64,000 nucleotides of DNA, taken from a virus. The notes beneath the pieces were generated by a model, which saw nothing but the letters and a program-made list of their open reading frames with translations, ran no database searches and was not told the origin of the DNA. The stretch spans positions 64,001-128,000 of the IMG/VR virus record IMGVR_UViG_3300035670_000034; one strand, given 5' to 3'. A program made the translations under genes and the position numbers. Below are positions 1,796 through 57,073 of this stretch, piece after piece. Position 1 is the first letter of the stretch; every line of letters begins with the position of its first letter.

Positions 1796-1868
1796 GGGCC
1801 AGTAACTCAGTGGTTAGAGTAGCACTCTTATAAAGTGCAAGTCGCGGGTTCAATTCCCGTCTGGCCCA
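1796..1868 (+). tRNA. tRNA-Ile with anticodon UAU
   Basis: Acceptor GGGCCAG/CTGGCCC plus discriminator A; D arm CTC..GAG; anticodon stem GCACT/AGTGC with loop CTTATAA (TAT at 1829-1831); T loop TTCAATT; no encoded CCA. Confidence 0.93.
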
Positions 1869-2495
1869 CTAAAATTCTTGTATCAAAAACCCACTTCCTG
1901 TTATGTCGTATGCTATTTCTGGTGTTAGTTGGGTATCTGCAATATCTTTATCTATTTGCCTTCTAAAAGCACTGTGAAGCATGGATGGATATGCATATCT
2001 TTGCACAGTATGTATGGCGTTCTGGGAAAACTCCATTAAGTGCCCCCAGTCGACCCTTCTCCCCAATCCATATTTGTATGGCATGGAAAAAAGATATATA
2101 TCCGGTACACCAACCAATTCGTTTTCCTCACAATGTATAACGGTTAGGCACTCTTTGACTTTGGTCTCGGGTTCCAGAAAAGCCAAGGACAGTTCCCTGT
2201 TTTGCGGTTCGTCCGCAACATACCCCTCGGCAATAAAAGTCAAAGACGTTACACCCAATTGAAATCTTAGAATTTTCATTAACTCATAACACCTGGCAAA
2301 CCTTTTTTGATGGGGCTCTTTCATAAACTTTGATTCAAGTTGGGCACACAAAAATGGCCTATTATCACGCCACGCAAAAAAGTTAAAGGACAGGTCCTCC
2401 CCAACACCTTCGGATTTAACAATTAGATTTTTTGCAAGTTGCGACGCAGTAAGTGTCAATGCAATCTTTGAAAAAGGGTCAAGATATTTGTCCAC
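1869..2495 (-). CDS. Hypothetical protein (208 aa)
   Basis: Long ORF, plausible composition. Confidence 0.75.
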   Translation of the reverse strand: MDKYLDPFSKIALTLTASQLAKNLIVKSEGVGEDLSFNFFAWRDNRPFLCAQLESKFMKEPHQKRFARCYELMKILRFQLGVTSLTFIAEGYVADEPQNRELSLAFLEPETKVKECLTVIHCEENELVGVPDIYLFSMPYKYGLGRRVDWGHLMEFSQNAIHTVQRYAYPSMLHSAFRRQIDKDIADTQLTPEIAYDITGSGFLIQEF

Positions 2496-15001: not shown

Positions 15002-15457
15002 GTGGGAAAAAACTCGGCGTACGACATTCCTTCTTTACGTTCTACTTTTCTCAAAGACCTGGAATACGGAGAGCAGGGAGAAGCACTCGTATCATCGTTC
15101 CTAGAATGCATTTCTGAAGGCGATTTTGAGGTAAAAAGCGACAGATACAGGAATGGGCGAATGGCAGTAGAAACTGACCAAAACCCGAGGGCAGCCCTAG
15201 ATGAACAAGGCAATCCTATCTGGGTAAAAAGCGGGATAAATCTAACCAAAGCGAAGTGGTGGGTATATATTTTTTCCCCTGATGGTGCTTTTATCGTCGT
15301 TTCAGTTGACAGGCTCAAAAAATACTTGCGAGCCAATAAACGCATATTCAATGAATCAACAAAAATCAATTTTGGTAAGCCAGACAATCCAGCAAAAGGA
15401 TTCCTTTTGTATCCACAGCATGTTCAGGACCTGATGACCAATCCTGCGTTTGGATAA
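15002..15457 (+). CDS. Putative PD-(D/E)XK nuclease-like protein
   Basis: FLKDLEYGEQGE...DFEVKSDRYRNGRMAVET. Confidence 0.6.
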   Translation: MGKNSAYDIPSLRSTFLKDLEYGEQGEALVSSFLECISEGDFEVKSDRYRNGRMAVETDQNPRAALDEQGNPIWVKSGINLTKAKWWVYIFSPDGAFIVVSVDRLKKYLRANKRIFNESTKINFGKPDNPAKGFLLYPQHVQDLMTNPAFG

Positions 15458-15669
15458 ATCTAACCAGAGTTTGGGAGTTCACAAATTGTGGTGTAGGTGC
15501 CCCCGCGCACACCGAGAGCGTCGAAAAAGTCCCGCACACTTTTGGTCTATGGGGTTGGCAAACGCCTGTTCGCTTACGGCAACGACGAACACTCGTTCGC
15601 ACCCTCCAAATAGCGTCCCGATGAGCGCAAGAGCAACGCTGAACAACACCACGCCCAACCATAGCACAG

Positions 15670-16830
15670 GTCAAATACACGTCCCGTTTGCCGAAGTGGT
15701 GCGCCACAAACCTGAGTGTGTCGCAGAAATAGTCGCACTCAACGCCATACACGCCCCGTTTGCCATATCAGTCGTGTATCGCAGTCGCAACACGCCGTTT
15801 CACTACGCCCCGTTAGGCGCATAGCATTGTGTGTTGTTACGCATACGCATACGAAGTTGCCCATCACCTAGCCCCGTAGCGCATAGCGTTTCGCATAGCG
15901 CAGCGCAGTCGCATACGCATACGCCCCGTATTCATTAGTCTTTTCGTGTGTGTCGCATACGCATTTCGTATCGCTTGTCGCATCTAGCCCCGTGAGCCAT
16001 AGCCATAGCAACACGCAGGCACACATACACGTCCCGTATGCGCCGTGCGCTGGTGTGTGTGAGCATACGCATAGCCAACCCATAGCCACTATGCCCCGTA
16101 TGTCGCATACGCATTCAGATACACACGCCCCGTTGAGTTTTTCGCAGGCTTCACGGGTGACCTACGGGCATACCCTACCTATGACAACACCACACACCAC
16201 CACGCATCTAGTCCCGTAGGTAGTGATAGGTATTTGTAATCAGTAGTCACGCACCATAGCAAGCCCATACCCCTACCCCTATGTGTGTCGCATCTAGCCC
16301 CGTAAGCACTACACCATAGGGATACCCCCACACCACGCCTACCGTGTGTGGCTTCATCTAGCCCCGTGACGCATACAACCTTTCGTAAAGGACTTGATAC
16401 TTAGCCGCCCCGTGTTTTCGCAAGGCTCACGGGTGGCTTACGGGTGCTTACACCTACCTACACCACTGCCTACACCACACACGCATCTAGCCCCGTAGGC
16501 ACTTGACTACACGCCACCTGCCCATAACCACATTTGGTCGTTGCTGAACATAGGCCCCGTAGTCGCCTATCGCAGTCAAGCGATACGACATCTCGCTTAT
16601 GAGAGTGCTTCACTATGCCCCGTATGGCGTGTGAGAGACTGAACACGGCGCAAGAGCCGTGTGTCTACTTGCGCCCCGCACAACATAGTCGCAGAACAGC
16701 ACTTGTAGACAAACGATAATCAGCCCCGTACAAAACACGGATTTTGAGGGTTTTTTCAGCGTTTTTAGTGCTGTACTCAGCGCACTCAGCCCCGTGCCAT
16801 AATAAAAGAACCCGATTACACCAAAAAGGA
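15670..16830. repeat. Non-coding repeat tract: CATCTAGCCCCGT repeats, about 20 (G/T)CCCCGT-type cores and a duplicated ~90-bp unit
   Basis: (G/T)CATCTAG(C/T)CCCGT at 15980, 16204, 16290, 16354, 16483; degenerate duplication 16127-16220 vs 16407-16499; only low-complexity ORFs. Confidence 0.8.
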
Positions 16831-16835
16831 CTTGT

Positions 16836-19800
16836 GTGACGCAACTTGGCCCCGAAAACAAAGACATTTACGAAGTTGATGTAAAAGACGGCAACCGTCT
16901 AGGTCGTCGCTTGTCTCGGGGCTTGAGGTCACTATCCAGAAGTGTCGGAAACACGGCAAGGTCGGGACTCGTTGTGGAACCATTTGACCCAAACGCATAC
17001 GACGGTGATGGTGACGGCATAATCCAAGACGGAACACAGTGGGAACGCCCCGCAGTGCTAAGAAGTCAGTCAATACCAAACGCAGACTTGCCCAAAACAC
17101 CTGATGCCGGGACTGAAACAGAAACAGAAAAGACACAAAAAGAGACAAGAAAACTCGTTGACGCAGCAGAGCGAGCCGGGACTCGGATTTCGCCAGAACG
17201 CTCACGGGTGACTACGGGTGGACTACGCAGTACGACAGTAACGCCGTTGCTTGACCCAGAGTGGCGAAGAACAGCAACGCCCCGAGAACTCGCTGAAATA
17301 ATCGTGCCAGACACGCTTGATGAAGCAGACGCACTAGCAGAACAGTTGGCAGTGCCCCGAAGTGCTTATGAAACCGAAGCAGACTACCAAAACGCACTAA
17401 AACTACTCAGAAGAACTCGGGACGCAGAAAGAGCCGCATCCAAGCGTCGTATGGAAGCACTTATCGCGATTTACGAAAAAAGACACCCCAAAACAACCAA
17501 AACAGGCTCGTTTGAGCGGGACCTAAGAGATGACCCTATTGAGTGGGACAAAAACCTCAAAAAAATCTTTGGCGACCAAAATGAGTGGGGCGAACAACTC
17601 GGGGCAACAAACAAACGGAGCGTTGAGCGGGCTCAAATAGAGTTTTTGGTCGCTTACAGAACAGAACTGGAACGGGACCCAGTAACAAACAAAACACTAT
17701 TGGACATAATAAATGAAATAGAAAACGCCTATCGAAACGGAGTGAGGCTCACGCACGGGGCTTTTTGGAGAGACAGTACTCACATACCAATCAGTCCCGT
17801 TGAGTATGTGCTTGCTCGTTTGTTTATGGAACACTCAAACCACCCACAAGACCCGTTGTTCATAACCGGCATTCGGGACGTAGTAACGCCGTCGGGCGAC
17901 ACCGACGCAGTTATCAGATGGGCGACTGAGTTCCTTGATGGATACCAAAGGTTCTACGAAGCACGAAAGGGGTCCCGTGCTCTTTCCAAGCAACAAATAA
18001 AGAACAGAATAGAAGTAGCAATGAACTCTGGGTCAAGAGGAGGCTTTTTCGGGACCCTTTTTGGTAGGGCTATTCCAAACGAACAATACATACAAACACA
18101 CCAAATGGTGGAAAGCAACGACCCTCGGGACCTTGCGCTACTACGGGCACTGTTACAAAGAACGCTAGAACAAAACCCTGAGTTTTTGGAAGCAGTAAGG
18201 AAGTTTGGACACCCGCCTCTCTATGTCCCGCACCGCGCTTACCATTTCATTGCCCCGCCAAGAGAGTTCCAAGAAAAGTTTTTGCTTGTTCCAGAAAGCG
18301 AACTAACGCCATCTGAACTGCGGGACAAACTTATTTCAGGAAAAGAATACGAAAAAGGTTTGCTTGAAGCAATCCGCGCCCAAGAACTCGGAAAAGGAGA
18401 TGTCACGTTCGGGGCAGGTGGACTACTTGGTGTACGGGCGGGACTTGGTGGACAGTATTCATTTCCTGATGGGCAAATAACACTTACCCCAATGCAACTG
18501 AGAAACACAATACTCAACCGCCCCGAGGCTGATGAAAACATAATCAACATGACCGGGACACAAGGCGCATACACGCTTGTTGGAGAACCAGCAATTCTCA
18601 TACACGAATTTGGCCATCACGTTGATTGGACTTTGCGCAACACCTTGTACGGGGCCTTGTGGGAGAGACGCAAGAGGGCTATTCGTGACTTTGCCAACGA
18701 CCCAAATAGAAATACAAGCCCCGACGTGTTCAAAGATTTTGTTCGTCAGCAGATAGTAGATTTTCGTGACGAACTAAAAGGCTTCACGGGCTTGGTAGAC
18801 CCCGATAACCCAAGCAAGTTGTCCGGGGCATCAGATAGACAAAACATTCATAGAAGTCGCTTGAAGTACTTAGGAGTGAACGTCCCCAGACAAGGCCCCG
18901 ACGAAGTTCCTGTTGGTAGTCGTCTGTTTGACCCATCAACGCTAACCGACGAAGAACTAGATGACCAAATAAGGGAAATAGCGGGGCAACTAGATGAAAT
19001 TCACGGAATGGTCGACATGCTGACTGGTCGCCAGCAAATACGACGAATGAAAGAAAACGGCACGTGGCAACGTGGCATCCACCCATCAGAAGGAGACGTA
19101 GGCGATTACGCCATAAACAGCCCCGAACCTTATGTAACTACGCCATACGGAAATAGCAGTGCGATTGAGCGTTTTGCTGAAATAACAGCGTTTGTTTTGT
19201 CCCGCAACGGACAAAAACAGCCTGTTGCGGTGAATAACGCCGCCGTGCGTCTATGGGCTCGGATACTTGGCATAGATGTAGAACCACAAGATGTTGTTTC
19301 TCAGTCCCGTCGCAAAAGACTTCCTTCGGGTGGCTACTCAGACGAAATGGAAGACATAACAAACCGCATACTCTCAGACATAAAGATTGTTGCGCCAGAT
19401 GTTCAGAGGCAGCCAGACGGTCACCGCCCCGGTTTGCAATCATCAACGTCATCATCAGATTTTCGTTTTGACCCAGATGAACGAAGCATGTTGCAGTCCC
19501 GTAGCAACATAGGCTTGGACACAGACCAACGCCTGTACGCACAAGATGAGCCGATAGGCGTTATGGATTTCATGAATAGGCCCCGTGTCTACTCAATAGG
19601 CGACCATCATTTCTACGATAACGAAGTTCGCTATGGCTCGCAGATGAGTTTTGCGATGAGAAAGCGACTTGGAGAACAAGCGGGACGCAGATACATCAAC
19701 AGAAACAGACCCCATCACGGAGATATGGTGCGGGCGATTTCAGCAACGCAGTTTGGACTGTTTATTGACGACCTTCCAACTTACGACACAACTACATCGG

Positions 19801-22800
19801 GGCAAATGAACGTTCTTCGTGGACTTGTTACGGGCAGAATAGCCAAACTACGCCCCGAAGAACGCTCACAAATAGAAGAAGCACTTAGAGACGCAACGAG
19901 AATACACTCGGCTATTTACGGCGCAACTCCGAACAAACGGGACACATACAGAGCGATAAAGACTGATAGAAAAACATTTTTGGAAAGCGTTGCCGTTGGC
20001 GACGAAATACCTATGCCGATTACGGCCTTCAGCCCCGATAAGCCCGACAACAACGAGAATGTGATTATCCGACTAGAAAAAGGCGCAAAAACCATAGATG
20101 TCGGCAACAGGCAAGTTCTTACTCAGGGCAATTTTGAGGTCGTTTCGGTTGATGACGACGGGACCCGTGTCATTGCCACGTTGCGCCATAAGGAAACATT
20201 TGACCCACGCCACGACGCACTTAGACCCGTGGACAAGTTTTCGGATAAGCCGAACGCAATGCGCAAGATGGGCAGTCCAATGCCCCGATACACCAGAGAC
20301 GAACAACAAAAGATGGAAGTTGATTTGGAGCGCAGACAGGACAAAGACAAAGTGTTTGGCTTGCGCTCAACAACGGGTATGGTCCCGGAGGATTTGAGCG
20401 AAAAAGAGATTGACGATTTCCTTGATGAAGAAGTGAACCTGTTTGAGGAAAAGCGGGTCCCGAAAGAAGTAGTTGATAAAGCGAAAAAGAATTTGCGTGA
20501 TTACTTGCAGAGAAGTGCTATTCGTCGTTTTGTCAAGACAAAGCAAGCCCTTATCCAAAAGTACGGGGCCGATAAGCCGTGGGAAAGAGACGCAGACGCA
20601 ATACGCAAATGGAGAGCAATCGACAGGGAAACCGCCGCACGGGTAAGCACAGTCCTGAGACGCAGCCTAAGAAACGCAATTGACAATAGAACTCGGGACA
20701 TGATGGATGCCGACACGGGCGAATTGTTTGACGACGCAAAGGTTGGCTTGTCCAGAGTACTGGACAGGTTCAACTATTACATAAACGACTACGAAGGTAT
20801 TGACTTGTCAGCGGGGCAGATTAGGCATCTTCTCGAAACTGGTCAGTTCGTTTACTGGAGACGGGACGACGAACTGTTCCCAACTGAGAAAATGGTAATC
20901 AATTTGCCAATCAACTCACCAGAAATGGCAGAACTCAAACAGGTTTTGGAGACGACACTTCCAGCATTGGAGGCGATGTCTCGGGCTTACTTGCTCGATG
21001 GTTCGGTCGACGTCCCGAATGCCAACAGAAGCATTTGGGAAGACCCAAAGATTGGCGGAAAGATAATCCTCAACAACGAGGAGTTGAACATAGTCCCGAA
21101 CGGTAAGGGCGTTTATGCAATATTCCAGCCAGATGGTTCTGAAAGCATAAGCCTTGTTGCGAACGCATCTTTTGGAGTTGGCAGCCAACGACCCAATGGA
21201 ACAACTGGTTTTACTCGCAAAATAGGGCTAGACCGGGACGGGAATATTGTCATTGGTCATGACCGTTTCTGGATGGGCAGCAAGGACAGAGAACGCAAAG
21301 GTTCTGGTGTGGCGACGCTATTCAACCAGCATTCGTTTTTGTGGTGGAAGCAGCATGAGGGCACTGAGGTTGTGGTCCCGAATGCCGTGAGTGACGGCGT
21401 GATTGTGTGGCCACGTCAAGGTTTCCGTCGGATTGGTCAAGCACGACGGGACGCATTGGAAGAACAAGAAGGATTTTTCCATATGGTCAGGGCTTTGGTG
21501 CTGAAATCAAAACGACAAGAACTGTTTGACGCAAACCGTCCCGAACGCGGGGGAACGGCAGAATACGAAGCGGCGCAGTTGGTGAAATACGTTGATGATG
21601 TTGATAGTAAATACGGACTTGATAATCCAGAGTTTGCAAAACGCCTAGTGAACTGGCTTGCGCTTGCTCGCACAGCAAATGATAATCAAAGCCCCGAAAC
21701 AGACCTCATCAACATATTGGCAAACATTATTGAGCCAAGAGAATTGAACGACAGCCAACGCCTGAGTTGGGCTGAACTGTTTGGACAAGTAGCGAAAAGC
21801 AATAGTTTCAGCATGTTTTTGAATCGGGACGAAAGCGACAATGACTACCTACCATCATTCGTCATCCCAGACCCGACTGACGACCTAGACCCGATGGAAG
21901 TACAACGCCAAATAGAGCGTGGCAGATTGTTGCGCCAAGAGTTGGAGAACTCACAGGCCCCGAGCGAAGTATCAAGAGATATTTACTTCCCAGAAGATGA
22001 CAAGGAAATTTCTAGCAACCGACTGCTTGGGGAAAGACAAGCGGGACGCCTATTTGCAGCCGTGAACATAGACGAAGCGACCAGTTCGGATACACGAACT
22101 TTTTCCTCAGCACGGGCATTCATGTATGCGAGAGAGGGTTCTGGCTTCAACGTCCCGCCAAGACTTCTCACACGGGTGGAAACAGAGGAACGAATTAGCA
22201 GGGGTGAAATACCCCTCTATGGTTGGATTGACCTCAATCGTGTCGGCATTTACACGAGCGACAGAAACAACATGCAAGAACTTTACGAGCAACGAGTTCG
22301 CAACAATATGGTCGGACTGGCGGGGCCGAGTGAAGTCATGCGTTTCACCGATAAGCCATTTGACCACATTGACGATTTCCACGACACGAACAATCCAGTT
22401 ACAGACCCAGCAGCAGTTCGCAGTGGAATGCTTGGCTACCTAGCCCCGTGGGCTCGTGTTTACAAAGGTAAGCGAAATGCTTTGCCAGAAATGTTTTGGG
22501 GCAACAGCACGGAGATTTCAATCGCAAGAGACATGCGGGACAGGGGCGATTTTGATGGTTTGATGGCTTTGCTTGTCAATAAGTTTGGCGAGGAGGTAGA
22601 TAACTCGGTGATGGGCACGGACGTTGCGTTAGTAGAAACCCTAGATGGATTTTTGCCAAATGGAAACTCCGAAACAGCACAGACGGGACGCCGAGTGTTG
22701 GGGGCATTGTTCCAAATTGAAAATAATCGAAGAATGGCCGAAGCAGGTATCTCAACGGCAATTAGGCAAGATAAGATACAAGGACTTAGAGATGGCTTGC

Positions 22801-25800
22801 TTGCCATCATGGCAACAGAGTTTGACCAATCATTGCTGGTTTTGATGGGATATGACGCAATACAGCACAAAGACGGGGAGTTCACAATCCTCAACAACAT
22901 GGCTGTCGAACTAATGGATGAGCCAGTTTCGTTCGCCCAAGCAGCGAGGATGATTGACGACCCGAGATTCAGAGCCATACCGTCCGATAGGTCCCGTTAC
23001 TCAACGTTCATTGAAACAAGACTTGTGGATAACCCTGACTGGTTTAGTGGCGACGACCCACGCCTGCTTGCCGACGAACCCATTTCTCTTACAAAAGCGG
23101 GTTTGAACAGTTCGACATACATAAGGTCTGTGCGTCAAGACCACAACATCAACCTAGAACGGGGACTACGCAGTAGAACACGGGGCTCGATTGCAAGCGC
23201 AAGAGAAAGACAGCGCCGAGAATCAGCAAGAGAAGGTAAGTCAGATGGGTGGGTAAATCCTGACGACGCATCATTCAAACAAGAAGTTGTAGAACTCGAG
23301 GGTCGCTTCAACGCGTTGGTTGCCCAACTTGAGGAGTGGGACGATAGGAACCTTGAACTCGACCGCCCCGATTGGGCCGGCCGCGAAGAAATCAAGAAGC
23401 AAATGGATGAAATCTCGGACCAGTTTGCGTCACTCATCAACACATCTAACATCGTCATTGAGAAATCCATGGAACACCAGGCGCTCATTGACGCCCTTGA
23501 CGCCATAATCAACGAGCGGGACGCCGACTACCTAGACGGGCGACCAAAGGTGAAAGATATTTCGCCAGAAATGCTTGACAAGATAAGGGCGTTGCGGGAT
23601 AAACTGGTACAAGAGAAGCAAGATAATCCAGGCTTGCTTGACTTCACACGGGCACGTGTCAGACACAAGACAATCAAGAACGCAATGGAAAACTTCGACC
23701 TTCAGTACGAGGTTCGTTGGTTCAATAATGAACCTGACACAGTTGAACTTGAAGACGTAGTCAAAGCGGATGTTTCCGACAAGGCCGAGGCTTTCGTAGA
23801 ACACATTTATCGTGGTCTGTTCGACGAAAGATACGACGCTTGGAGGGAGTACATGAAGCCGACGATGGCATTCGGCGTACCCCTTTACGACTCGACTTGG
23901 GAGTTGGGCCACAAGAGAGTTGGCGAACTGTTTGACGGGGTGAGCCCTGATGAACGGGACGCTTGGAGGGCGGCGCACAAGGACTTCCTCGATAGTGAAT
24001 ACAACGCAGAATACGAAGAGGACATCATCGACTCAACACCAGTCGGTGGTTCGACCAGACCACGTGACGTCCCCGCCCCGATTTGGCGTAAAGTCAGGGC
24101 TGCCATGTCACGGGCACGCTCAACTCCATACAACGGCGAGAAAGAGGCTGCCACAAACGCAGCGATACGACTCCTCAATCCACACCGACCAGATTTGGCT
24201 AACGAAGACTTTGTTTCGGGCATTAGGTCGCACACTATTGTCAGCACACCTCGGTCGGTAGTGAACTTCTCTTCCAAGCAAATGCGGGGCGCCAGCCCAA
24301 CCTCTCCAACAACCGCAATTGAGAACCACGCATTCTCACGCATCATTGATGAGGTGAGGAGCCAAGGCATAGAAATAGAAGAAGCAGACCTATTGCCCAC
24401 TGGTAAGTACGGAAGCAAGTTGCGCCAGATTATGGACGACAACCAATCCACACAGTCGGTTAATTGGTTGATTAGACAAACAGAAGACGACCCAGTTCTT
24501 TCTGCCGTCGTAAATGCGGCGATAAAGCAGGCTCGACTCACAATGGGCATAACCCCAATCGAGGGTCACAGAATCAAAAAGGTGAACGGCCCCGTTGATG
24601 AGGAGATTGCTGATGTTCTCGTAGACGACATCGACTTGGCTTTGTTGCGTAATCAGGGTGCGCCAACCTATGACCAAATTATCCAAATAGCAGCAGCAAA
24701 ATACATAGAACACGATAGACTGAACAAAGCATTCGGTTCTTACCAAGACCCAGAAGGCAAACTCATCGGCGCTGGCTTTACCCGCATCGACAAAAACAGC
24801 ACTGCCTACCTGACGACGATGACCAGCGCCCCAGACGTTGATGGGAAAGACTACGTCTATAGGGACATTCGGGGCAACGAGGTTGCCCGCTTAAAGCGTT
24901 ATGACAGCGTGAAGTCAGATAACGTTGCAAGTCGCAAACCAAAAACCTTGAGTAATTTCGCCACGCAACACTCACTCATCAAGACCAATGACGCCATTTT
25001 CGGGGTAATGGCGGAGGCGGTTGAGTTTACGGGTGACTACGAAAATGCAAGTTTGAAGAAACTAAGGGCGACTATAGAAGAACTACAAAGCATTTACAGG
25101 AACTTTGAGTTTGCCCCGACTCCAGCGGGCCAACACCTGAAAAAACTATTTGAAGCGAACCTTGAAAGCGAAGTAAAAACTTTAGAACTTCTGGAAAGAA
25201 TTGGGCAGCGATATGTACACCTGTTGCGTGAGCGGGGCATTTCGGACAAAGAAATAAGAGAGATGCTCTCAACCGTCAGGAAACAAACACTCAAGACAGC
25301 CGTTGACCCCGTGGGGAGGGAGGACCTATTCCTGAATGGCAGCCCGATTCCAATCGGCAGTTCCAATGACGGAACAGTCGCAGAGCAGGCACTTTATGGC
25401 TTTTTGAACAGCAAACTCGGTAGTGCCATGCTGCCCCGTTTCGCCGACTCAGACGCACCTGCTGGTTTTCACGAGATTGGTCACTTTTCTTTTGGCCAAG
25501 CCTTCTCACGTCACGGTGAGTTCGTCGCCAATGCTTGGCCATTCTTTGTGCATGGCGACGCATTCTGGAGGTCGTTTGTCGCCTTACAGCGCAATCAGGC
25601 ACCCACCTTTGACAAGTGGACAATATCTGAGCATCTTGGGAAAGCCCTGAGCCCCGAACAGAAAGCAGCCTTCAAGGATGCCTCAAGGCTCATAGGCAAA
25701 ACACTTAGCCGAGACTTCGTCGCTGCATTTGAGAGAGAAAGATACATATCTCTTGGCGATTCAGAACGACAAATAATAGCCTCGGATGTCATTGCGGCAG

Positions 25801-26903
25801 TTCGGGGCAATGACACGCTTGGCGATAAAGAAAAAGAAGAGTTAATCACACAAATTCAAAAAGAGATAGACGGGGATATGTTCTTTATTGGTGTGCCCAG
25901 AACAGGACGACACAGCGAAGAAGAAAAGAAATTCCTTCGGGAATTGGGATTACCTGAAGACGCAGTCCCGGACAACGGCATAACTGTGGGCACTTGGAAA
26001 CTTTATGATTCGCTAATTCCGCTTAATCCAAGCGTGTTTGGGTGGCAGCGTCGTGATGGACTCAGGAGTACCACCAACGAGGAGAGACAAAAATTAAAAG
26101 ATGATGTTGTTGAGCATGTTCTTGCTGGAAATACACTCAAGGCAACGGCAAAGAAGTTTAATATCAGCATAGAATCAGTCTCAAGATACCTGAGACAGGC
26201 TGGCGTCCCGAATCTTGGACAACGCCCGATTGGGATTGCGACGACAGACGATTCCTATCGTGAAACTGGCAAAATGGTTCGCGCCGATGCCCCTGATGTC
26301 CTGAAGGCAAAGTTTGATGCCTTGACACAGATGATTGCCGGCGGGACCGACCTGCGTGAGAGTTTGGAATCCATAAACTTTTCTGGCGTTGATATTGATT
26401 CCGTGATTGACTTTATGGATAACTTGCCAGAACTCCCAGAACGTTGGTCTGGTACTAGAGGACCATTTACCGATAACGCTCTTTACCGAGCGATTTCTCT
26501 GATGGCTGCGCTTGGATTCTCAACAAACCTTACATCTGAAACATTGGGGTCAAGCCCCGTAACCGTCACCAAGTACAGGAAGCATTCAGGCTTTGTCCCA
26601 CCAAAGATTCGGGGCGGGAATCCAACCCATAGAGGGCTCAGCAGCACAACTGCCACCTCTCGACAGCGCCGTGAGTTTGCGACATTGCTCAGGTCTGTAC
26701 ACTCGCTGATGGGCGGGCGCCCCGTGTTCTTTGGCAACGAAACTGATGAAGAAATGGCTATTGCTGAGCGTTTGTTCCGTCAGAAAAGAACGGCTGCTAA
26801 GCGTCGTTTGTCGCCTATCATTGATGCTCTGAGGGGTATGGCTCAGAGATACCCAGAACTGAGCAAGGATTTCGCTGACGAACTGAAGGAGATTTCCAGA
26901 TGA
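16836..26903 (+). CDS. Giant polyvalent protein (3355 aa): two zincin metallopeptidase motifs, ART-like, GNAT, DUF2786-like and HTH modules
   Basis: IHEFGHH (aa ~590) + IERFAE; YR..AFS..QVL ART-like; RERKGSGVATL GNAT; KVRAAMSRARSTPYNGEKEAA; FHEIGH (aa ~2879); two C-terminal HTHs; N-terminal DGDGDG. Confidence 0.85.
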   Translation: MTQLGPENKDIYEVDVKDGNRLGRRLSRGLRSLSRSVGNTARSGLVVEPFDPNAYDGDGDGIIQDGTQWERPAVLRSQSIPNADLPKTPDAGTETETEKTQKETRKLVDAAERAGTRISPERSRVTTGGLRSTTVTPLLDPEWRRTATPRELAEIIVPDTLDEADALAEQLAVPRSAYETEADYQNALKLLRRTRDAERAASKRRMEALIAIYEKRHPKTTKTGSFERDLRDDPIEWDKNLKKIFGDQNEWGEQLGATNKRSVERAQIEFLVAYRTELERDPVTNKTLLDIINEIENAYRNGVRLTHGAFWRDSTHIPISPVEYVLARLFMEHSNHPQDPLFITGIRDVVTPSGDTDAVIRWATEFLDGYQRFYEARKGSRALSKQQIKNRIEVAMNSGSRGGFFGTLFGRAIPNEQYIQTHQMVESNDPRDLALLRALLQRTLEQNPEFLEAVRKFGHPPLYVPHRAYHFIAPPREFQEKFLLVPESELTPSELRDKLISGKEYEKGLLEAIRAQELGKGDVTFGAGGLLGVRAGLGGQYSFPDGQITLTPMQLRNTILNRPEADENIINMTGTQGAYTLVGEPAILIHEFGHHVDWTLRNTLYGALWERRKRAIRDFANDPNRNTSPDVFKDFVRQQIVDFRDELKGFTGLVDPDNPSKLSGASDRQNIHRSRLKYLGVNVPRQGPDEVPVGSRLFDPSTLTDEELDDQIREIAGQLDEIHGMVDMLTGRQQIRRMKENGTWQRGIHPSEGDVGDYAINSPEPYVTTPYGNSSAIERFAEITAFVLSRNGQKQPVAVNNAAVRLWARILGIDVEPQDVVSQSRRKRLPSGGYSDEMEDITNRILSDIKIVAPDVQRQPDGHRPGLQSSTSSSDFRFDPDERSMLQSRSNIGLDTDQRLYAQDEPIGVMDFMNRPRVYSIGDHHFYDNEVRYGSQMSFAMRKRLGEQAGRRYINRNRPHHGDMVRAISATQFGLFIDDLPTYDTTTSGQMNVLRGLVTGRIAKLRPEERSQIEEALRDATRIHSAIYGATPNKRDTYRAIKTDRKTFLESVAVGDEIPMPITAFSPDKPDNNENVIIRLEKGAKTIDVGNRQVLTQGNFEVVSVDDDGTRVIATLRHKETFDPRHDALRPVDKFSDKPNAMRKMGSPMPRYTRDEQQKMEVDLERRQDKDKVFGLRSTTGMVPEDLSEKEIDDFLDEEVNLFEEKRVPKEVVDKAKKNLRDYLQRSAIRRFVKTKQALIQKYGADKPWERDADAIRKWRAIDRETAARVSTVLRRSLRNAIDNRTRDMMDADTGELFDDAKVGLSRVLDRFNYYINDYEGIDLSAGQIRHLLETGQFVYWRRDDELFPTEKMVINLPINSPEMAELKQVLETTLPALEAMSRAYLLDGSVDVPNANRSIWEDPKIGGKIILNNEELNIVPNGKGVYAIFQPDGSESISLVANASFGVGSQRPNGTTGFTRKIGLDRDGNIVIGHDRFWMGSKDRERKGSGVATLFNQHSFLWWKQHEGTEVVVPNAVSDGVIVWPRQGFRRIGQARRDALEEQEGFFHMVRALVLKSKRQELFDANRPERGGTAEYEAAQLVKYVDDVDSKYGLDNPEFAKRLVNWLALARTANDNQSPETDLINILANIIEPRELNDSQRLSWAELFGQVAKSNSFSMFLNRDESDNDYLPSFVIPDPTDDLDPMEVQRQIERGRLLRQELENSQAPSEVSRDIYFPEDDKEISSNRLLGERQAGRLFAAVNIDEATSSDTRTFSSARAFMYAREGSGFNVPPRLLTRVETEERISRGEIPLYGWIDLNRVGIYTSDRNNMQELYEQRVRNNMVGLAGPSEVMRFTDKPFDHIDDFHDTNNPVTDPAAVRSGMLGYLAPWARVYKGKRNALPEMFWGNSTEISIARDMRDRGDFDGLMALLVNKFGEEVDNSVMGTDVALVETLDGFLPNGNSETAQTGRRVLGALFQIENNRRMAEAGISTAIRQDKIQGLRDGLLAIMATEFDQSLLVLMGYDAIQHKDGEFTILNNMAVELMDEPVSFAQAARMIDDPRFRAIPSDRSRYSTFIETRLVDNPDWFSGDDPRLLADEPISLTKAGLNSSTYIRSVRQDHNINLERGLRSRTRGSIASARERQRRESAREGKSDGWVNPDDASFKQEVVELEGRFNALVAQLEEWDDRNLELDRPDWAGREEIKKQMDEISDQFASLINTSNIVIEKSMEHQALIDALDAIINERDADYLDGRPKVKDISPEMLDKIRALRDKLVQEKQDNPGLLDFTRARVRHKTIKNAMENFDLQYEVRWFNNEPDTVELEDVVKADVSDKAEAFVEHIYRGLFDERYDAWREYMKPTMAFGVPLYDSTWELGHKRVGELFDGVSPDERDAWRAAHKDFLDSEYNAEYEEDIIDSTPVGGSTRPRDVPAPIWRKVRAAMSRARSTPYNGEKEAATNAAIRLLNPHRPDLANEDFVSGIRSHTIVSTPRSVVNFSSKQMRGASPTSPTTAIENHAFSRIIDEVRSQGIEIEEADLLPTGKYGSKLRQIMDDNQSTQSVNWLIRQTEDDPVLSAVVNAAIKQARLTMGITPIEGHRIKKVNGPVDEEIADVLVDDIDLALLRNQGAPTYDQIIQIAAAKYIEHDRLNKAFGSYQDPEGKLIGAGFTRIDKNSTAYLTTMTSAPDVDGKDYVYRDIRGNEVARLKRYDSVKSDNVASRKPKTLSNFATQHSLIKTNDAIFGVMAEAVEFTGDYENASLKKLRATIEELQSIYRNFEFAPTPAGQHLKKLFEANLESEVKTLELLERIGQRYVHLLRERGISDKEIREMLSTVRKQTLKTAVDPVGREDLFLNGSPIPIGSSNDGTVAEQALYGFLNSKLGSAMLPRFADSDAPAGFHEIGHFSFGQAFSRHGEFVANAWPFFVHGDAFWRSFVALQRNQAPTFDKWTISEHLGKALSPEQKAAFKDASRLIGKTLSRDFVAAFERERYISLGDSERQIIASDVIAAVRGNDTLGDKEKEELITQIQKEIDGDMFFIGVPRTGRHSEEEKKFLRELGLPEDAVPDNGITVGTWKLYDSLIPLNPSVFGWQRRDGLRSTTNEERQKLKDDVVEHVLAGNTLKATAKKFNISIESVSRYLRQAGVPNLGQRPIGIATTDDSYRETGKMVRADAPDVLKAKFDALTQMIAGGTDLRESLESINFSGVDIDSVIDFMDNLPELPERWSGTRGPFTDNALYRAISLMAALGFSTNLTSETLGSSPVTVTKYRKHSGFVPPKIRGGNPTHRGLSSTTATSRQRREFATLLRSVHSLMGGRPVFFGNETDEEMAIAERLFRQKRTAAKRRLSPIIDALRGMAQRYPELSKDFADELKEISR

Positions 26904-56440: not shown

Positions 56441-57073
56441 TTAATATTTGGACTTGCTCTCTTTCCTGGTGTCTTGTATGTGCACATGGTACGGGCTCCC
56501 CGTATAAGGGTCAAACCGTGCTGCTGCTGCAAGGGCCTTTAGCGCCTGCTGTCTAGCCTTTTGAATATTCGGGCGCCCGCGAGCCGCCAAAGCATGCAAA
56601 GCCCCCATTGCGTATTGGGCTCCAGTTCCTATCGCATAGGTGCCATTGACATCCGAATACCACGAGTAATCCCCATCCACTGTGTACAGGGTTCCGTTTA
56701 CTGCCACTATTACAGAACTGCCCATTTCAGCCATATGGGTCTTTAAGTCATTATCGGGCATTGCGTACCCCTGCTGTTCAAAGCACTCTCGTAGTGCAGG
56801 GATAAATTTGACCGTAAAGAAGTGGTCGAGTTTCTTCCCTTTTAAATTAGGCGGCGCTGTTGGTGGCTGGAATGCATGATGCAGGATGTTGATGGCCCGC
56901 ACGTCCCCAGCCGCCCCTATCAAGTACCTGCCATTTGACTGGACCTTCCCAGTGCCCTCACGCATGGTAACCACCTGCGTCACGTAGCCGTGTTCGTCTA
57001 CATCTGAAACCTGGGAGTCAGTGCAAATGAGAGCAAAGGTATCTCCCTGTATCCCAACAATTGTTGTCATCAC
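56441..57073 (-). CDS. HslV/proteasome-beta-like Ntn threonine protease
   Basis: N-terminal TTIVGI...TDSQVS...GKV...IGAAG...AIGTGAQYAMGAL...DPYTG. Confidence 0.85.
   Translation of the reverse strand: MMTTIVGIQGDTFALICTDSQVSDVDEHGYVTQVVTMREGTGKVQSNGRYLIGAAGDVRAINILHHAFQPPTAPPNLKGKKLDHFFTVKFIPALRECFEQQGYAMPDNDLKTHMAEMGSSVIVAVNGTLYTVDGDYSWYSDVNGTYAIGTGAQYAMGALHALAARGRPNIQKARQQALKALAAAARFDPYTGSPYHVHIQDTRKESKSKY

Follow-up and report, generated by a model that had tools for sequence, protein, structure and literature searches.

Why does one short peptide recur along a phage protein of 3355 amino acids (aa), and what reads it? The question is raised by a 64,000-nucleotide stretch of DNA (the window) that comprises bases 64001-128000 of the 136,198-bp IMG/VR virus record IMGVR_UViG_3300035670_000034, the genome of an uncultured phage with an estimated completeness of 91%. 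A preliminary description of the window had noted nine peptides resembling G-L-R-S-T-T in the product of one open reading frame (ORF) and had read them as a self-encoded cleavage code of a polyprotein. The analysis reported here points, with moderate confidence, to a head-packaged polyvalent cargo protein that is cut at hydrophobic-x-Ser linkers, probably by an S78-type protease encoded among the head genes of the same phage.

Recurrent peptide in the 3355-aa protein

The nine peptides were borne out. The regular expression G[LI][RQNS]S.[TS] matched at aa 29, 129, 866, 1175, 2089, 2110, 2462, 3075 and 3267, all in one ORF and at the nucleotides listed in Table 1. In 2000 composition-preserving shuffles, 0.057 copies were expected and the maximum was 2; the exact peptide GLRSTT, present three times, had an expectation of 0 in shuffles of the protein. 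A chance or low-complexity origin of the motif was ruled out by these shuffles and by the conservation at homologous places described below. As stated earlier, the codons vary between the copies: Ser is encoded by TCA, TCG, AGT and AGC (both the TCN and AGY families), Leu by TTG, CTA and CTC, and Arg by AGG and CGC. This variation, which extends to both Ser families, places conservation and selection at the protein level and likewise ruled out a DNA-level repeat or recombination site. The copies at aa 29 and 2089 look spurious when their sequences and homologues are considered (Table 1).

Distribution of the peptide over the phage proteome

All ORFs of the whole 136-kb genome were scanned with the strict motif G-[LI]-x-S-x-T. 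Five giant proteins, which together hold 25% of the proteome residues, contained 26 of the 30 strict copies, and each of the five was significant by its own shuffle test (P ≤ 0.0005). Four of them are encoded at genome 29.4-56.6 kb, with the portal gene on one side and the major capsid gene on the other, and the fifth is the 3355-aa protein. The consensus over all copies was G-L-[A/R/S]-S-[S/T/R]-T, and Arg, Ser, Gly, Pro and Asp are frequent on both sides of it. Apart from a tape-measure-like protein (see below), no motif copies were present in the terminase and the other long proteins of the phage.

The first of the four head giants is a 1225-aa fusion protein with a Peptidase_S78 match at aa 21-165 (Pfam E 5.4e-10; score 40.1 bits, cut-off 21). 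The S78 domain, which makes up the first 171 residues, also matched phrog_80, a head maturation protease (7.5e-28), and has the His motif WGHNW and the Ser motif WSIGY. The same peptide marks four giants besides the 3355-aa protein, including the polypeptide that bears the protease, and the description of the code as self-encoded is therefore not supported. A neighborhood of virion packaging genes is absent at the 3355-aa gene, and its link to the head is instead made by the motif and by a shared N-terminal module.

Anchor module shared with head proteins

This module of ∼55 residues, here called the anchor, is characterized by a DxDGDG loop, which we take to resemble a DxDxDG calcium-binding loop. 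A profile built from 22 anchors of other proteins, with the family of the 3355-aa protein excluded, was searched against the phage proteome and matched the S78 fusion (1e-34), the 2206-aa (1e-31) and the 877-aa (7.5e-27) head giants and the 3355-aa protein (4.8e-5, aa 21-77), with no fifth match. The anchor is hence found in exactly four proteins of the phage, and in the S78 fusion it lies at aa ∼405-475. The aligned anchors share 31-38% identity, and the module is nearly invariant in homologues of the 3355-aa protein. A hidden Markov model search of 1.84 billion representative proteins returned 127 anchor clusters; full-length matches occurred at fixed places in protease fusions of ∼1000-1260 aa, in proteins of 1800-2200 aa and ∼900 aa, and at the N-terminus of proteins of 3300-3900 aa.

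In each protein the anchor precedes the first motif, and in the fusion it directly follows the protease domain; this position suggests that it takes the chains into the procapsid, and it is proposed as a capsid-targeting or docking part. The preliminary description had offered a docking or packaging tag as an alternative role for the recurrent peptide; this role is better assigned to the DxDGDG module.

Concerted change of the code between related phages

Sixteen homologues of the 3355-aa protein (P0001) were found, all of them metagenomic, with 29-100% identity, lengths of 2778-3935 aa and the same N-terminus. The motif is kept at the counterparts of sites 129, 866, 1175, 2110, 2462 and 3075 in homologues down to 36% identity, and at site 2462 the hydrophobic-x-Ser element is kept in 16/16. 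The distant homologues P0013-P0015 (class B) have [ST]-L-R-S-[SAG]-G at five homologous places (residues 867, 1176, 2111, 2463 and 3074) and a site near residue 2052 instead of 2089; at the counterpart of site 129, LRSSG is found in the class-B proteins of loci L098 and L099 (aa 109-124). In the most distant homologues, P0016 and P0017 (about 2780 aa), the module order is kept and the S-x-T and S-x-G codes are both absent at the borders; these proteins may use a third code or none.

The protease locus was compared in the same way. Across 554 IMG/VR contigs, identity of the S78 domain ranges over 75-99%. Peptides that were over-represented downstream of this domain in related phages were identified de novo and included LRSSG (8 copies vs. 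0.12 expected) and LSSG (11 vs. 0.13), as well as the further phage-specific variants G[FL]xSxG, GGMSS and G[FLM]xSxT. At one orthologous site of the protease fusion GLASSS is present in this phage vs. TLRSSG in locus L019, and in a complete 160-kb relative the 3563-aa chain fused to S78 contains 14 copies of [LF]SSG and a 2204-aa head protein two. Across the codes the constant core is hydrophobic-x-Ser. Since many sites in several proteins change together, one common reader is indicated. The check suggested in the preliminary description, a search for the motif across the phage proteome and homologues, thus gave this result: the copies concentrate in five giants, and most of the sites are kept or switched in the homologues. 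A contig with both a class-B homologue and a class-B head module was not found among five head-module records, which are without the protein, five protein records, which are without the protease, and a metagenome scan that returned short contigs only; the rest of record G008 contained no other motif-bearing protein.

Two further elements share the core. A 451-aa Asp/Glu-rich scaffold-like protein (genome 33227-34582), whose gene follows that of the protease fusion and precedes that of the first cargo giant and which has homologues in loci L014-L055, keeps R-R-[LM]-x-[ST]-M-G-[YM]-K in all code classes, and this element is a candidate class-independent protease site. The major capsid protein (genome 56593-58023) has F-L-[AD]-S-A-E-F-K ∼108 residues in, after a helical N-terminal part; this element is shared with the 160-kb relative and is a candidate delta-domain cleavage point with a hydrophobic-x-Ser core. 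The peptide ALRSK at the N-terminus of the major capsid protein was also considered as a site and was rejected, as its Ser is Gly in a related phage.

Just after the S78 domain, Met/Pro/Gly-rich repeats (PGMP, MPxMP), possibly flexible spacers, were strongly over-represented in loci L045, L050, L053, L075, L079 and L086.

Module structure of the 3355-aa protein

Two AlphaFold models, calculated from 14-sequence alignments, covered aa 100-1250 and aa 2040-3200 with a mean predicted local distance difference test score (pLDDT) of 69 and 74, respectively. Both showed well-folded units with low-confidence coil between them. At six of the seven modelled sites (129, 866, 1175, 2110, 2462 and 3075) the invariant Ser was located in coil of pLDDT <50 between folded units, site 2089 being the exception. 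Such coil makes up 19% of the model residues, and the binomial probability of finding six of seven sites in it by chance is 3e-4; some coil segments without a motif were also present. The claim that the peptides stand at module borders is supported at these six sites, in predicted coil.

The module order is conserved among the homologues save for the slot after site 3075. This slot is occupied by two helix-turn-helix (HTH) domains in the 3355-aa protein, is absent in six homologues through a deletion that ends at motifs, and contains another insert in P0015. In P0010 and P0014 (P0011 is also listed) an ADPrib_exo_Tox cassette (PF03496, E 5e-8), a second ADP-ribosyltransferase, replaces the HTH cassette in the C-terminal 200 aa. 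The borders of these losses and swaps coincide with motifs.

By conventional annotation little of the protein could be assigned: Pfam gave weak HTH matches only, no informative match came from PHROGs, and a profile of 14 sequences retrieved nothing from the PDB sequences at E ≤ 1. The structure model was more informative for module 2, and here the earlier label of ADP-ribosyltransferase (ART) was confirmed at the level of the fold. Foldseek against the PDB gave Tre1 (6dre, E 4.2e-5, probability 1.0) and also C3, iota and SpvB. The best VIA match was 6drh_B (Z 11.9, root-mean-square deviation 3.7, 141 residues aligned, model residues 835-1021), and the 20 chains with Z ≥ 8 were nearly all ADP-ribosyltransferases, together with anthrax lethal factor, which matched via its VIP2-like domain. 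In the sequence alignment R966, S969, Q972, Q1097 and G1098 of this module were invariant and E1101 nearly so.

The other labels stood to a lesser degree. The two modules labelled zincins have HExxH motifs that are invariant in the 14 homologues, and no zincin match was found for either of them by Pfam, PDB sequence or fold searches. For the region of modules 4 and 5 (aa 2040-3200) Foldseek returned nothing below E 0.02, a wide VIA search only helical-bundle matches with Z < 8, and for module 5 a Protein Atlas search gave no usable match. The DUF2786-like element is assigned through the Pfam match of one homologue (P0014, aa 2576-2609, E 4.9e-6). The HTH label is weak, and the GNAT label of module 3, which had no Pfam match in any of the 14 homologues, is a weak lead only. 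Taken with the separately folded units of the AlphaFold models, the ART fold, the two invariant HExxH modules, the HTH domains and the DUF2786-like element give the protein a polyvalent make-up.

Proposed processing and alternative readers

In the proposed scheme the 3355-aa protein would be made as one chain and taken into the procapsid by its DxDGDG anchor. Exposed linkers with G-[LI]-x-S-x-T would then be cut, most probably by the S78 prohead protease, and the scissile bond would follow the invariant Ser at seven robust sites (129, 866, 1175, 2110, 2462, 3075 and 3267). The predicted products are, in order, a 132-aa anchor leader, a 737-aa HExxH protein, a 309-aa ADP-ribosyltransferase, a 935-aa protein with a possible acetyltransferase, a 352-aa helical protein, a 613-aa second HExxH protein, a 192-aa HTH protein and an 85-aa tail; they would leave the particle together with the DNA and serve as early effectors. 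The figure of about eight products in the preliminary description is retained only if the copies at 29 and 2089 are dropped and the extra element at aa 886 is left aside. The S78 protease is favored as the cutter because all members of the group have it, cargo with the motif is fused to it, the motif recurs behind its own domain and the anchor is shared, because the site, a hydrophobic residue, any residue and a fixed residue, fits the P3-P2-P1 rule of assemblin-type proteases such as T4 gp21 and SPN3US gp245, and because class-independent elements resembling the core occur in the scaffold-like and capsid proteins.

Several observations weigh against this reading. S-x-T and S-x-G phages are not told apart by any column of the S78 catalytic domain (aa 1-171), and the nearest S78 clades differ only by four conservative changes (E18Q, L70I, A88M and T112A), which leaves the reading of the flanking positions unexplained. 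The full motif is absent from the portal and major capsid proteins. Two strict copies (aa 667 and 711, P 0.0075) are present in a protein outside the head, the tape-measure-like protein (genome 9239-14182, - strand). Near their N-terminus, the tape-measure-like proteins of two phages carry the variant of their own phage, GLASSS at aa 55 in this phage and KFSSGR at aa 36 in the related complete phage (G002 12730-16947, - strand), an agreement that is statistically weak. The tape-measure copies would require a protease that acts outside the procapsid. The 3355-aa gene itself is located among replication-type genes (primase/helicase, WhiB and helicase), 23 kb beyond the capsid gene. Finally, the alignments used for AlphaFold were shallow (14 sequences) and low pLDDT may not equal disorder. 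Few parts of the family are as well conserved as the stretch after site 866 (window 19449-19643, aa 872-936), which is nevertheless predicted as low-confidence coil; it may need a partner for folding or belong to the ART module.

The main rival reader remains a zincin-type metallopeptidase in the cargo, either one of the HExxH modules of the 3355-aa protein or one in the other giants, which could act before packaging, in the head or after injection. We consider this unlikely. The zincins of the 3355-aa protein cannot be the general reader, since neither zincin region has a homologue in the complete related phage, whose code is [LF]SSG. Of the cutters named in the preliminary description, a head protease outside the window fits best. 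HExxH modules are nevertheless present in cargo polyproteins of most related phages examined, including an ArdC-like HExxHWTGH, and all 14 homologues compared keep both HExxH motifs of the 3355-aa protein and the ligand-like residues downstream of them unchanged. Divergence of the HExxH modules is much faster than that of the S78 domain, as expected of a reader that co-evolves with its code, and a soluble protease could account for the tape-measure copies; the zincins of different phages are of different types, while the core of the code is constant. Processing of such proteins by a zincin has been put forward in the literature as a proposal, not as data (PMC5512222).

It is still less probable, and in our view quite improbable, that the peptide is not cut and is either a linear motif that binds scaffold, portal, capsid interior or a chaperone, or a site of Ser/Thr modification (phosphorylation, glycosylation), with the giant acting as one chain. 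For docking, the DxDGDG anchor is a separate and much better candidate. On the chain of the protease itself, the motif stands behind the protease domain in the manner of auto-release sites, modules are lost or swapped exactly at motifs, and the sites are in coil between unrelated folds, all of which speaks for cutting. Set against these points, the concerted, phage-specific change shows a common reader only and not a protease, the conserved residues are Ser and Thr, the flanks of sites 866 and 2462 are conserved beyond the need of a plain linker, and phage N4 packages its giant virion RNA polymerase uncut (PMC5512222).

Reading by the HslV-like peptidase of the window or by a host protease after injection appears very improbable: two related phage records have a conserved copy of the HslV-like gene (62% and 50% identity) and a host enzyme could account for code differences among phages with nearly the same S78 domains, but HslV-type proteases are not known to use short sequence-specific sites, nothing links the gene with the head module or with the proteins that bear the motif, and a host reader leaves the protease-cargo fusion and the shared anchor unexplained.

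Relation to known systems

Cleavage of packaged proteins by head proteases at a short motif has precedents, as do ADP-ribosyltransferases in the virion, such as Alt of T4, and polyvalent proteins. T4 gp21 cuts at I/L-x-E (PMC12991175), and SPN3US gp245 cuts at A-x-E and removes N-terminal propeptides of 20-254 residues (PMC10052503). The system proposed here resembles those of T4 gp21 and of phiKZ and SPN3US gp175/gp245 (A/S/G-x-E) in having a protease of the assemblin-like superfamily and one motif in many head proteins and in the protease chain (PMC10052503, PMC12991175, PMC5512222). The site likewise consists of a hydrophobic or small residue, any residue and a fixed residue, and, as with T4 Alt, an ADP-ribosyltransferase is among the cargo; propeptides of roughly 20-250 residues serve for targeting there. 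It differs in that the protease is of the Pfam S78 (HK97) type and the fixed residue is Ser, not Glu. The substrates are chains of up to eight modules with internal sites instead of proteins that lose a single propeptide, the code changes between close relatives, the gene of the 3355-aa substrate is outside the head module, and the present system is known from sequence alone.

For polyvalent proteins, packaging and delivery with the DNA were predicted and processing by peptidases, mainly zincins, was proposed; no cleavage sequence was defined (Iyer et al., 2017; PMC5512222). The 3355-aa protein is of this kind, a giant chain of ART, zincin-like HExxH, HTH and uncharacterized domains, and adds to that account a linker code that is explicit and statistically strong, an anchor common to several proteins and concerted code switching. 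Its ART fold resembles the R-S-E (C3/Tre1-like) toxins in structure and not Pfam ART-PolyVal by sequence.

The UL26-type assemblin precursor of herpesviruses has a release and a maturation site with the consensus (V/L/I)-x-A followed by Ser. There, too, an N-terminal protease of the same superfamily is fused to a C-terminal part for the capsid interior and released from it by cutting itself, P3 is hydrophobic, P1 is small and Ser adjoins the cut, an analogy of shape only; unlike here, that precursor has two sites and one cargo, the scaffold. The virion RNA polymerase of N4 has a similar size of ∼3,500 residues. It has a zincin-like domain, is packaged in the capsid and is injected (PMC5512222). 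The 3355-aa protein is likewise a giant phage protein, with modules that are zincin-like by motif; the N4 protein is uncut and an RNA polymerase, and no match to an RNA polymerase domain was found in Pfam, PHROGs or PDB sequence searches of the 3355-aa protein. A literature search for the peptides gave irrelevant matches only.

New, to judge from code and anchor, is that a protein encoded far from the head genes appears to belong to the head system. Also new are the per-site credibility test of the nine copies, the placement of sites in predicted coil and one module with a modelled ART fold. If the peptide is a cutting signal, it provides a ready domain parse of a 'dark' protein of 3355 residues and of about 10,700 cargo residues of the phage, and it names the separately acting pieces, among them ADP-ribosyltransferase, two metallopeptidase-like, DNA-binding and possible acetyltransferase modules. 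In that case head-protease codes would be extended from the Glu rule of T4 and phiKZ to an HK97-type protease with a Ser rule, the processing proposal of 2017 would become testable with named bonds, and a natural system would be at hand in which the specificity or the substrate code shifts between near-identical proteases. Anchor and code could in principle also be used to load chosen proteins into capsids.

A wider and more tentative interpretation is that large uncultured actinobacterial phages use a polyprotein strategy like that of RNA viruses. An anchor resembling a calcium loop would load up to eight unrelated effectors, and a genome-wide hydrophobic-x-Ser-x-Thr/Gly code would direct a phage protease. 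From one close relative to the next the code would change jointly at dozens of sites; host defences with decoy loops for sensing phage protease activity may exert the pressure behind this (compare PMC12991175). Distant genes would be recruited by gaining anchor and code.

Genomic setting and feature list

The neighbors of the 3355-aa gene encode a primase/helicase, a WhiB-like regulator, a helicase, the HslV-like peptidase and a metallophosphoesterase, and the WhiB-like gene suggests an actinobacterial host. No cultured relatives were detected by megablast and tblastn against 50,697 phage records or by megablast against plasmids. A promoter common to the head genes and the 3355-aa gene was not seen upon inspection by eye. 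The features are compiled in Table 1.

Table 1. Features of the 3355-aa gene, its motif copies and modules, and of the head block; positions are those of the window unless marked as genome.
Feature	Position	Strand	Remarks
ORF of the 3355-aa polyvalent protein (P0001)	16836..26903	+	GTG start; AAGGA ribosome-binding site 6 nt ahead
N-terminal anchor module, aa 21-77	16896..17066	+	basic stretch, then D-G-D-G-D-G-x-I-x-D-G-T loop
Motif copy aa 29, GLRSLS, doubtful	16920..16937	+	ends in Ser; within conserved basic stretch of the anchor; motif not kept in homologues
Site aa 129, GLRSTT	17220..17237	+	end of 132-aa leader; pLDDT <50 coil (model residues 1-36); kept in class-A homologues
Module 1, zincin-like by motif only	17238..19430	+	HExxH aa 590-594 (nt 18603-18617); H590, E591, H594 invariant in 14 homologues; folded, pLDDT about 80-90
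Site aa 866, GLQSST	19431..19448	+	start of pLDDT <50 segment (model residues 763-837); conserved in 14/16 homologues; class B [VL]RS[GA]G
Extra hydrophobic-x-Ser element aa 886-890, LQSRS	19491..19505	+	20 residues beyond site 866; 13/16 homologues retain the hydrophobic residue and Ser; absent from the earlier list
Module 2, ADP-ribosyltransferase fold, aa 934-1120	19635..20195	+	Foldseek and VIA; most conserved module, 50-85% identity
Site aa 1175, GLRSTT	20358..20375	+	pLDDT <50 coil (model residues 1072-1090); L1176, S1178 invariant in 14 sequences; class B LRSSG/LRSTG
Module 3, aa 1181-2088	20376..23099	+	possible GNAT core ∼aa 1475-1530; weak Protein Atlas lead (ART-PolyVal/Acetyltransf_1 clusters, score 0.80)
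Motif copy aa 2089, GLNSST, doubtful	23100..23117	+	start of short conserved helix, pLDDT 49 rising to 77; no class-B signature in class-B homologues
Site aa 2110, GLRSRT	23163..23180	+	pLDDT <50 coil (model residues 71-79); class B SLRSSG/SLRSGG
Module 4, helical, aa 2116-2461	23181..24218	+	helical in AlphaFold model; DUF2786-like element ∼aa 2413-2450
Site aa 2462, GIRSHT	24219..24236	+	coil, pLDDT <50 from model residue 425; S2465 invariant, R2464 nearly; class B [ST]LRS[SR]G
Module 5, second HExxH	24237..26057	+	HExxH aa 2879-2883 (nt 25470-25484); H2879, E2880, H2883, H2893, E2895 invariant; invariant RHGE downstream
Site aa 3075, GLRSTT	26058..26075	+	pLDDT <50 coil (model residues 1034-1044); indel-rich border; class B [ST]LRSSG
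Module 6, HTH cassette, aa 3081-3266	26076..26633	+	sole variable slot; Pfam HTH_28/HTH_23, HTH_28 weak (E 0.0055)
Site aa 3267, GLSSTT	26634..26651	+	present only where the HTH cassette is present
C-terminal tail, 85 aa	26652..26900	+	kept in all homologues; F3346 invariant; F3281, G3300, P3340 nearly
HslV-like peptidase	56441..57073	-	phrog_1040, E 8.8e-27; minor candidate reader of the code
Head block			order: large terminase, portal, 1225-aa S78 fusion, 451-aa acidic scaffold-like protein, 3039-aa, 2206-aa, 877-aa, major capsid protein
1225-aa S78 fusion	genome 29412-33089		motif copies aa 483, 1059, 1070, 1094 (4 loose, 3 strict), all beyond the protease domain
3039-aa head giant			7 loose, 6 strict copies
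2206-aa head giant			6 copies
877-aa head giant			3 copies

In the non-coding 1.3 kb upstream of the giant gene (window 15452-16835) GCCCCG(T/C) words are repeated on the + strand up to the ribosome-binding site, as seen in 16600-16850. A tRNA-Ile with the anticodon TAT is located at window 1796-1869.

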